A DNA stretch of 11,115 nt, taken from Cyanophyceae cyanobacterium. GTDB lineage: Bacteria; Cyanobacteriota; Cyanobacteriia; Cyanobacteriales; JBHJGN01. The DNA lies in the NCBI GenBank assembly GCA_050331735.1, contig JBHJGN010000002.1:1-11115 (forward strand). Direction: 5' to 3'. Within the stretch, counting starts at the first letter, position 1, and every line of letters begins with the position of its first letter. Position numbers and translations under genes: made by a program. The notes under the pieces are model-generated. The model was not told the origin of the DNA, searched no databases, and worked only from the letters and a program-made list of their open reading frames with translations. Shown one piece after another: positions 1 to 6,204 of the stretch.

Positions 1-136
1 GCACCTTGGTCTGAGGAAAAACGGCTTCAATGGCTTCGGGAAATCCGGTCAATCCATCCACGCAGGCGATGCAGTTTTTTTCGACTCCTCGGTTATGAAT
101 GTCGTTGAGGACCGAAAGCCAGAATTTAGCTCCTTC
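1..136 (-). mobile_element. IS256-family transposase, internal fragment (runs off the left edge; N-terminal part absent here)
   Basis: Manual translation of the minus strand from 136 gives EGAKFWLSVLNDIHNRGVEKNCIACVDGLTGFPEAIEAVFPQTKV. This matches the IS256/Mutator core signature (EGAKFW..VL..L..RGV....IAC.DGL.GF.EAI..VFP), including the catalytic-region DG. It is not in the ORF track. Confidence 0.9.
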
Positions 137-696
137 TCCTCTAGAACGTCCAACCAGGGATTTCGCTCAAATTCGAGCAACTGCTGTTCTTTTCCCCAAT
201 CCCAGCACGCTCTAATTAAGAGCAAGTAATCTTTCGTCGTGCGATCGCTACAGCTTTGTAGCACATGCTCAACGAAAGCAGCAGGCTTTTCCCTAAAGAA
301 CTTACTAAGATGCCGCTGTGCTCCTGCGTATCGGCACATGCTACCCACACGTAGACTCTTAGAAGTTTTCTGAATATGCATGAACTTCTCAAACAGCTCA
401 GCACAAGAAATCCGACCATTCCTACCAATTTGTCTTTGGGGTTTGTACTTCGTTAAAGTGCTGTCATAGTTCCCACTAGAAATGCCCAGCTCAATCTGCA
501 GCGCCAGTCGCTCAGCATGGCCCCTGTTGATATGGCCATCTGGAAGTCCTACTGCGAGCGACCGACGCTTCCCCTGATAGGTCCAGCAAAGTCGCAGATG
601 ACCCTCACCACTCTCAACTTTAACGATCCCCCTACCACTTTGGATTTTGCCCCGCTGGATTATTGGCTGACCCCCTTGATGTATCGAAACTAACAC
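137..696 (-). pseudogene. Truncated tyrosine integrase (Arm DNA-binding/DUF3596-like N-domain plus core-binding domain; catalytic domain missing)
   Basis: ORF 49..696 begins GHLRLCWTYQGKRRSLAVGLPD...AERLALQIELGISSGNYDSTLTKYKP, typical of cyanobacterial Arm-domain integrases, followed by LIRACWDWG...NPW. There is no R-H-x-x-R-H/W-Y catalytic region. The last ~29 codons are out-of-frame IS256 sequence. It lies just downstream of a tRNA 3' end. Confidence 0.8.
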
Positions 697-844
697 AATT
701 GATTTTTCTGCCAGAATCCGACTACTTTAGGGTCTAAAAAGGGCTAAATGTATCCAAAAGTGCGTTCCTTATTGAGAAGGATGCTGGTTGTTTTCCATTC
801 CTTAGAAACAACGAAACCCTCTTGGTGAGAAAGTTTTAGTGGTA

Positions 845-918
845 TCGGGATGACTGGATTCGAACCAGCGGCCCCTTCGTCCCGAACGAAGTGCGCTACC
901 AAGCTGCGCCACATCCCG
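845..918 (-). tRNA. trnP: tRNA-Pro (anticodon CGG)
   Basis: The reverse complement is CGGGATGTGGCGCAGCTTGGTAGCGCACTTCGTTCGGGACGAAGGGGCCGCTGGTTCGAATCCAGTCATCCCGA. It has acceptor stem CGGGATG/CATCCCG, anticodon arm CTTCG-TTCGGGA-CGAAG and T-loop TTCGAAT. CCA is not encoded directly after the discriminator. Confidence 0.97.
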
Positions 919-1949: not shown

Positions 1950-2399
1950 TTAGCGCCAGAACTCCTGAATCACATCTGCAATATGGCGGTCGGAAAATAC
2001 ATCAATTCCCACCGCCGATTTGATTAAATAAGCGATTAGAACAATAGCAGCACTCGCGACTAAATTGGCTCCGATTAAAAGAACGACCGCCGCTACCCAA
2101 TTACCCGCTTGAGCTAGCTTGCTTGGCGCATAATCGCGCCGGTGTTGGCGGCGGTCTTTACCAACTAAGATCACTAAGTAGAAGCGGGAAAACAGCAGAT
2201 CCACCGTAAATCGCAGGTCTACTAATTTAGGGGACGGTTGGGCGGCGCGTTTCAACCCCTGAGTGACTGCTTCAAGCTGCTGTGGCGTGAAGCTTTGAGC
2301 AATTTTAGGATCTAGAGACGATAAATCGCGAGGCGTTCTTGTCCGATAACGAGCGGACGGAAACCGCGACTGGGCAGATGATTTCAAATTCCGCTTCAT
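1950..2399 (-). CDS. Hypothetical membrane protein (149 aa, C-terminal hydrophobic segment)
   Basis: ATG-started ORF filling the gap between lipA and the symporter, with VDLRFTVDLLFSRFYLVILVGKDRR followed by a long hydrophobic helix. Confidence 0.75.
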   Translation of the reverse strand: MKRNLKSSAQSRFPSARYRTRTPRDLSSLDPKIAQSFTPQQLEAVTQGLKRAAQPSPKLVDLRFTVDLLFSRFYLVILVGKDRRQHRRDYAPSKLAQAGNWVAAVVLLIGANLVASAAIVLIAYLIKSAVGIDVFSDRHIADVIQEFWR

Positions 2400-4869: not shown

Positions 4870-5268
<399 letters not shown>

Positions 5269-5328
5269 AAATAATCATAGCTTACTCAATTGAGCTTTAG
5301 GGAAGTTGTGTCCAGAGTGATTCCTTGA

Positions 5329-5565
5329 CTATTTCAAGGGAGGCAAGCCAGCTAAATTTCTCTCGGTGCTGTGCCCAAAAAAAAGGGAAGAGACAATCTC
5401 TTCCCTGCTAGGCTGGTTGTGTTGAGCTGGTGGCGAGTCTTTAAGCTTTCTGCGAAGCATTTGCTGCTGTTTTTTCAACTGCCTTTGTCTGGCCGAGCCG
5501 CCTTTACCCTTGTCATTGCGTCCTTGACGGCGAGGCGATTCCCATCGCTTTAATCGCTGAGCCAT
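5329..5565 (-). CDS. Small basic protein; candidate ArfA/BrfA-like alternative ribosome-rescue factor expressed from nonstop mRNA
   Basis: 78-codon ORF with an Arg/Lys/Gln-rich N-terminal ~42 aa containing KGKGGS, an AAAGGA SD, an extended -10 upstream and an intrinsic terminator inside the CDS. The confidence value is for the gene being real; the function is inferred. Confidence 0.7.
   Translation of the reverse strand: MAQRLKRWESPRRQGRNDKGKGGSARQRQLKKQQQMLRRKLKDSPPAQHNQPSREEIVSSLFFGHSTERNLAGLPPLK
5377..5406 (-). terminator. Intrinsic terminator located inside ORF 5329..5565, 45 nt before its stop codon
   Basis: The minus strand reads AGGGAAGAGA-TTG-TCTCTTCCCT-TTTTTTT, a perfect 10-bp stem running into a T8 tract. 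Confidence 0.88.
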
Positions 5566-5599
5566 CGTCTATTGTCCTTTAATCTGAGTTTCTCTCTAA

Positions 5600-5608
5600 A
5601 TTGTAACA
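5600..5608 (-). promoter_or_regulatory. Putative extended -10 promoter of the small basic ORF
   Basis: The minus strand reads TG-T-TACAAT, ending 34 nt upstream of the ATG at 5565. Confidence 0.5.
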
Positions 5609-6120: not shown

Positions 6121-6192
6121 GCCACATTAGCTCAGTGGTAGAGCACTCCACTCGTAATGGAGGGGTCGTCGGTTCAAATCCGACATGTGGCT
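6121..6192 (+). tRNA. trnT: tRNA-Thr (anticodon CGT)
   Basis: GCCACAT/ATGTGGC acceptor stem, D-arm GCTC-AGTGGTA-GAGC, anticodon arm CTCCA-CTCGTAA-TGGAG and T-arm GTCGG-TTCAAAT-CCGAC. No encoded CCA. Confidence 0.97.
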
Positions 6193-6204
6193 TCCTAAAC
6201 TAGA

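Follow-up and report, generated by a model that had tools for sequence, protein, structure and literature searches.

The window analysed here, 11,115 nucleotides of contig JBHJGN010000002.1 from a Cyanophyceae cyanobacterium, contains a small gene whose reading frame runs through what looks like its own transcription terminator, which raises the questions of why the frame stays open there and what a protein made from such a message would do. To our knowledge, release factor (RF)-dependent backup ribosome rescue factors have been described solely in some proteobacteria (ArfA and ArfT) and a few Bacillus species (BrfA), and the earlier note on this DNA had proposed the gene as a cyanobacterial factor of this class. 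The authors of the BrfA study predicted that many bacteria have rescue systems yet to be identified (PMC6881298).

The extended -10 element TGTTACAAT, the Shine-Dalgarno-like AAAGGA and the basic N-terminus described in that note all lie where it placed them, and the translation is identical (Table 1). TGTTACAAT is absent from a two-hexamer promoter scan because it has no -35 element. The claimed 10-bp hairpin and T-run inside the ORF were also found: the hairpin, AGGGAAGAGA-TTG-TCTCTTCCCT (10 pairs, 3-nt loop), spans codons 54-61 and is followed by a T-run spanning codons 62-64 and ending at 5377 (T7, or T8 counting the last T of the stem), with the TAG stop at 5331..5329, 15 codons past the T-run. 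The folding energy of the hairpin alone is -15.5 kcal/mol, and that of the 44-nt stretch around it is -21.2 kcal/mol (z = -3.87), a value equalled by none of 200 shuffles. Comparison of 105 homologous loci shows that the arrangement in the window, with its frame open through the hairpin, is more than chance.

Table 1. Features of the small gene in the window.
Feature	Position	Strand	Remarks
Small-protein ORF	5329..5565	(-)	78 codons, 78 aa; translation as quoted in the earlier note
Extended -10 element TGTTACAAT	5608..5600	(-)	Read directly in the sequence
Shine-Dalgarno-like AAAGGA	5580..5575	(-)	9 nt 5' of the ATG
Start codon ATG	5565..5563	(-)	
Conserved basic core, codons 1-42, MAQRLKRWESPRRQGRNDKGKGGSARQRQLKKQQQMLRRKLK	5440..5565	(-)	From the alignment; predicted helix at residues 23-42
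Linker, codons 43-53	5407..5439	(-)	Hydrophilic, unconserved, free of stop codons
In-ORF intrinsic terminator, codons 54-64	5377..5406	(-)	Hairpin 5406..5384 plus T-run 5383..5377
Unconserved read-through tail, codons 65-78 plus stop	5329..5376	(-)	Predicted to be missing in terminated transcripts

Homologues are common among cyanobacteria. A match at E<1e-10 is carried by 49 of 61 related genomes, and species-representative genomes yielded 575 confirmed homologous stretches, 80 of which belong to Nostocales, Pleurocapsales, Chroococcales, Coleofasciculaceae, Leptolyngbyaceae, Pseudanabaena and others. In a protein collection reduced to 90% identity, 1549 proteins match at E<=1, and the source names appearing among these matches are all 'hypothetical' or similar; at 50% identity, 453 clusters match. 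An even sample of the phylum has the gene in 70 of 251 genomes, mostly in the window's own order plus four further families, and in 0 of the 98 genomes of the largest family sampled. The best 150 of the 453 cluster representatives are all 66-172 aa long, and a single relative of 30-41 aa was found.

Conservation is limited to the start of the protein, residues 1-42, in line with the limit of ~45 aa that the earlier note had proposed to look for. In an alignment of 33 sequences this core is the only conserved part and holds 22 invariant columns, and the linker (codons 43-53) has no conservation. Column entropy in the core is 0.49, 0.25 and 1.27 at the first, second and third codon positions, and codon differences counted over 2000 random pairs from 105 loci comprise 35243 synonymous versus 12499 nonsynonymous changes in the true frame, against 4003/44233 and 1520/45882 in the two shifted frames. 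Judged by these codon patterns, the small gene is real, coding and under strong purifying selection, with a conserved core. K19, G20, G22 and G23 are invariant in the 33 cellular sequences and K21 and S24 nearly so, while K6, E9, S10, P11, R12, R16, N17, A25, R28, Q29 and K32 are invariant in cells and viruses alike, the family-wide blocks being ESPR, RN and AR.RQ..K. AlphaFold2 predicts one helix (residues 23-42) in an otherwise disordered chain (mean pLDDT 66). The window protein has no Pfam match, no named family was found for it in NCBIfam, PHROGs or the ESM Atlas, and Rfam gave no match at the small-gene locus in the window. Searching all PDB chains by profile (E<=10) gave a single match, an rRNA-contacting stretch of Nop14 (E=0.19).

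The window's genome (G000) carries a second copy (contig C8; L114 1459..1703, minus strand) directly after a gene for a 277-aa PP-loop (NAD_synthase-like) protein. It is broken after ...KGKGGSA by a frame-shifting 56-nt insertion, past which the remaining core, hairpin, T8 run and TAG follow in another frame, and it is probably a pseudogene. The insertion is strongly structured (-24.7 kcal/mol) and was rejected as a repeat element since it occurs once in the genome. The only match labelled as non-photosynthetic, L038, is titled Candidatus Sericytochromatia bacterium; it sits at the end of a 5-kb contig, its hairpin exactly matches the one in a Symplocastrum MAG (L033), and it is likely to be a mis-binned cyanobacterial contig.

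If the frame runs through a terminator by design, homologues should share the arrangement. We examined 110 loci (105 unique) and went on to 20 additional genomes that are more divergent, using a scanner for an RNAfold hairpin followed by a T-rich tail. It detected an in-ORF terminator in 109 of the first 110 loci, the remaining one (L026) having by eye a hairpin with a weaker T-run, and in 18 of the 20 divergent genomes; overall, 123 of 125 cellular loci keep the terminator before the stop, in agreement with the earlier note. None of the 105 loci has an in-frame stop in the interval from codon 42 to the hairpin's 3' end, and the other two frames have stops in the same interval in 30 and 94 of them, with linkers ranging from 9 to 72 nt. 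From the hairpin to the first stop the median distance is 48 nt in frame and 35 and 38 nt in the other frames, and the tails past the terminator cannot be aligned; as far as the sequences tell, the frame beyond the terminator ends at a random distance and the tail is unconstrained. Relative to the frame, hairpin midpoints are found in each of the three phases (22/44/39), and 104 hairpins contain 50 different inner stem sequences, so the element is conserved as RNA structure and not as peptide. The unalignable tails and the varying hairpin phase bear out the description of the residues over and past the hairpin as a translated terminator. The predicted stop-less products are 54-80 codons long (median 65). 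A TAG directly follows the hairpin at one locus (L061), and in about 15 loci the stop lies <=12 nt from the stem, and therefore could sometimes be transcribed.

The composition of the hairpin arms is unusual. Although the 104 family hairpins are homologous and hence not 104 independent events, 93 of them have a 5' arm that is >=90% purine, and the purine/pyrimidine bias has been kept while the stems diverged. In 2.5 Mb of the window's genome we counted 1824 terminator-like hairpins, of which 23 (1.3%) are as purine-rich. Since a purine-only arm lacks T and a pyrimidine-only arm lacks A and G, neither can contain a stop codon in any frame. Such arms suit a terminator that ribosomes would have to cross in whichever phase the linker, with its frequent shifts, happens to set.

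The two cellular exceptions and the viral homologues have ordinary stops. In one genome (G024; L123 161..292) the gene has 43 codons, and rimM (306..800), encoding a 16S rRNA processing protein, begins 14 nt past its stop, an arrangement that suggests an operon with a ribosome-maturation gene; in the other (G288) it is 51 codons long. No terminator lies within 230 nt in either case. Loss of trans-translation in these two genomes was rejected, as SmpB and tmRNA are present in both. Viral homologues were found on four IMG/VR contigs and in six GenBank phage records among 50,697, namely S-SSM4 (two), S-SSM6b, DSL-LC02, S-CREM1 and Acaryochloris phage A-HIS1. The S-SSM4 homologue (L120 1198..1323 = HQ316583.1 1382..1507) is an unannotated gene of 41 codons with an ordinary stop, located between CYXG_00002 and tRNA-Val with 6 nt from its stop to the tRNA; S-SSM6b, DSL-LC02 and S-CREM1 carry similar ORFs, likewise unannotated, and the A-HIS1 homologue is ORF039, annotated as hypothetical. 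All eight viral homologues read, a set that does not count S-SSM6b as a separate record, are 41-52 residues long and have an ordinary stop right after the ~42-residue core, and a viral terminator, where one exists, is 3' of the stop. The KGKGGS motif highlighted in the earlier note is kept in the 33 cellular sequences but not in the T4-like phage copies, where KGKGG is replaced by RSKLAS or KSPKRS.

The concern that homologues might normally stop before the hairpin, the window copy having simply lost its stop, therefore applies to the viral copies only (8/8), and not to cells, where the frame is open in 123 of 125 loci. That all eight viral copies stop after the core implies that the core alone is sufficient as the functional unit and that the stop-less tail is regulatory, and the missing stop in cells consequently calls for a regulatory explanation. 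The contrast in stop position between cells and viruses strengthens the regulatory reading, under which the stop-less design is, by this comparative evidence, a selected, cell-specific regulatory feature. Two traits of the ArfA/BrfA class are thus present in the family, the terminator inside the ORF at the sequence level and an unconserved, dispensable part past the truncation, the viral copies ending after the core. We consider it probable, on strong comparative support, that the cellular protein is made from a built-in stop-less message.

Upstream of the gene, the family shows two arrangements. In 40 of the 105 loci (among L002-L107) the gene directly follows a same-strand tRNA-Leu(CAA) gene, at a distance of 21-228 nt, and in 31 of these 40 the spacer between tRNA and start codon is just 21-36 nt. 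The spacer holds a GAGAGG/AGAGG ribosome-binding site at the same distance from the start as AAAGGA in the window. This proximity implies a tRNA-mRNA cotranscript ending at the in-ORF terminator, and the tRNA-linked mRNA is probably a processed trailer of the tRNA transcript. Same-strand upstream genes include an M48 peptidase in 21 loci, often 5' of the linked tRNA, and an FMN-dependent dehydrogenase in 16. At loci without an adjacent tRNA, an extended -10 element (TGnTAnnnT) occurs at -80..-15 of the start in 34 of 65 cases versus 3 of 62 control windows. The window's genome has its tRNA-Leu(CAA) elsewhere, and the small gene is not behind it.

Other features of the window were recorded in passing. 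A 215-aa ORF (49..696, minus strand) with an Arm-DNA-binding domain only, the N-terminal part of an integrase, adjoins tRNA-Pro(CGG) (845..918, minus strand) and looks like the remnant of a tRNA-integrated element. A 149-aa ORF (1950..2399, minus strand) has a basic N-terminus, a hydrophobic C-terminal half and no Pfam family. An Rfam Plastid-ycf2 match at 6121..6193 (35 bits; threshold 65.7) was dismissed as just the antisense of tRNA-Thr(CGU).

The design of the gene closely resembles that of brfA, which has 71 codons (78 in the window) and a rho-independent terminator in its ORF a few codons before the stop, giving a product of ~62 residues that is degraded via tmRNA tagging and for which a cryo-EM structure has been reported (PMC6881298). 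The product predicted from the window's stop-less message is of about the same size (~62-63 residues) and, as in the BrfA report (PMC6881298), the tail would be unneeded and the protein itself lacks a GGQ motif. No sequence similarity was found between the two proteins, the PDB search (E<=10) having returned Nop14 and no BrfA chain. According to the published accounts, BrfA is limited to part of the Bacillaceae, whereas the small-protein family covers the greater part of a large order of cyanobacteria and reaches some others; tmRNA control and RF2 dependence were demonstrated experimentally for BrfA, whereas in the cyanobacterial family they are predicted.

The likeness to arfA also lies in the message. 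In arfA (72 codons) a stem-loop within the ORF causes termination or RNase III cleavage, the truncated product keeps its full activity, conservation is poor in the C-terminal tail, and the ribosome-bound protein is ordered over only 46-48 residues (PMC8012679); the cyanobacterial gene shares the stop-less message via a stem-loop in the ORF and the poorly conserved tail, and differs in having a canonical terminator where arfA is partly RNase III-dependent. The KGKGS motif of ArfA is described as binding the empty mRNA channel (PMC6299226). The basic motif RQGRNDKGKGGSAR (residues 13-26) of the window protein aligns to ArfA residues 28-41, RVEKNKKGKGSYMR, with 50% identity over 14 residues, and no counterpart was seen of the hydrophobic RF2-binding segment reported at ArfA residues 15-31 (PMC6299226). 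Like ArfT, reported as a 40-aa protein with a KKGGS-type motif, the family is very small and basic, its minimal viral forms having 41-45 aa, and unlike it the cellular genes would be controlled via a truncated message, a mode of regulation that is reported not to apply to ArfT (PMC6299226). Profile comparison by hhalign gave the family alignment a probability of 2.8% against E. coli ArfA and 3.5% against an 18-sequence ArfA profile, over 14 columns, and the PDB profile search (E<=10) returned no ArfA chain. Neither PF03889 (ArfA) nor PF10685 (KGG repeat), the family to which we take ArfT to be linked, turned up when 33 members were compared with Pfam at E<=10. Given the weak hhalign result and no link through Pfam or the PDB, the family was not filed as ArfA, BrfA or ArfT; on these comparisons it is like all three in gene design, with no detectable homology beyond the 14-residue motif.

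The rescue inventory of the window's genome comprises tmRNA, SmpB, RF1 and RF2, together with RqcH, another backup pathway; no ArfB-type short RF-1-domain gene was found in it. An ArfB-like gene is present in 16 of the 61 relatives. A complementary distribution of the small gene and ArfB was rejected, as the small gene occurs in 14 of the 16 ArfB-positive and 35 of the 45 ArfB-negative relatives. Of the 162 cyanobacterial genomes covered by a 2024 survey, 90 have arfB and none has arfA (Table 1 in PMC11633108).

Our leading interpretation, to which we give slightly less than an even chance, is that the small protein is a tmRNA-gated, RF-dependent backup ribosome rescue factor convergent with ArfA and BrfA. 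Transcription would start from the gene's own extended -10 promoter, as in the window, or run on from tRNA-Leu(CAA) in many relatives, and would end at the in-ORF terminator, leaving most messages with ~63 codons and no stop codon. Ribosomes would reach the 3' end of such a message and stall. With spare tmRNA-SmpB capacity the product would be tagged for degradation, and with trans-translation saturated or lost it would build up untagged, bind stalled ribosomes in their empty mRNA channel or at the decoding centre and, in the manner of ArfA and BrfA, promote peptidyl-tRNA release through a release factor. We infer the position of the RNA 3' end, the tagging, the ribosome binding and the release factor recruitment from the design of the gene. 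The rescue interpretation is supported by the coding and widespread nature of the gene, the in-ORF terminator with its stop-proof arms and the ungated viral copies; by the lack of a conserved downstream gene and the presence of tmRNA, SmpB, RF1 and RF2 without ArfB in the genome; and by the ArfA-like basic motif, the brfA/arfA-like design and the absence of arfA from the 162 surveyed cyanobacteria. It is weakened by the lack of Arf homology, the loss of KGKGG in T4-like phages and the lack of complementarity with ArfB, by the ordinary stops in G024 and G288 where SmpB and tmRNA are kept, and by the stops close to the hairpin in about 15 loci and the presence of RqcH.

Another reading of the ORF is that of a leader peptide, the hairpin being a translation-controlled attenuator of the downstream gene. 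In the window this would be glnB (4870..5208, minus strand), which lies 120 nt downstream on the same strand, a DUF3493 gene being the upstream neighbour. Synteny rules this out, as no same-strand downstream gene is conserved. Among the 105 loci, the window is the only one with glnB or DUF3493 as a neighbour. At 75 other loci, 47 of the nearest downstream ORFs share the strand of the gene (median gap 447 nt), 25 face it from the opposite strand, and 3 loci have no such ORF; the downstream genes come from many unrelated families. In addition, glnB has a promoter-like site of its own (5289..5262), and a leader peptide would not be expected to have a 42-residue core in which 22 columns are invariant; we regard attenuation as extremely improbable. 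The protein might instead come mainly from read-through or complete messages, with the terminator a by-product of compact gene ends and no link to trans-translation. The 40 loci behind tRNA-Leu(CAA) could simply use the terminator of the tRNA unit, and two cellular genomes and all viral copies read work with ordinary stops. Compact gene ends would not, however, leave 123 of 125 loci with a frame that is open as far as the terminator and an unconserved tail of random length beyond it, nor yield stop-proof arms of a kind found in 1.3% of the genome's terminator-like hairpins. The lengths of the best 150 cluster representatives (66-172 aa, against the one relative of 30-41 aa) also speak against a by-product and, since phages tolerate a stop after the core, the lack of one in cells has to be accounted for. 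We accordingly judge this explanation improbable.

The main rival to the rescue interpretation accepts the stop-less, tmRNA-gated design as real and assigns the protein another ribosome-associated role under the same gate, as a ribosome- or rRNA-binding factor that does not recruit a release factor, for example a vacant-ribosome occupier, a hibernation or protection factor or a sensor of translation stress. Cyanobacteria already have RqcH and often ArfB (PMC11633108), which favours such a role. The architectural evidence fits it equally well, and it is further favoured by the basic, disordered-plus-helix shape predicted by AlphaFold2, by the Nop14 stretch that was the sole PDB profile match (E=0.19), by the lack of homology to known Arf factors, and by the genomic neighbours, rimM directly after the gene in G024 and a tRNA gene upstream in 40 of 105 loci. 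Against it, the characterised genes of this design, arfA and brfA, all encode RF-dependent rescue factors as far as the published descriptions go, and we know of no hibernation factor made from a nonstop message. We think this rival somewhat unlikely, though a serious contender.

Returning to the rescue interpretation, its fullest form would be an independently evolved, RF-dependent rescue factor, the first for cyanobacteria, gated by trans-translation through a stop-proof terminator and carried in many lineages on a tRNA-Leu(CAA) trailer, whose core was captured ungated by phages as the first virus-encoded rescue factor, freeing host ribosomes during infection. We hold this complete scenario to be somewhat unlikely; a search of the literature, subscription journals not covered, found no cyanobacterial factor of this kind described. 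If rescue is indeed its function, the family would fill a gap in the rescue factors of a major photosynthetic phylum and would represent a third independent rescue factor made from a stop-less message, making the logic of the design testable by comparison, with gated cellular and ungated viral copies as a natural experiment. The stop-proof purine/pyrimidine terminator within an ORF would be a new sequence signature, searchable in other phyla. Even if the function is different, the family is a widely conserved, unnamed small protein whose expression is predicted to be a readout of trans-translation in the cell.
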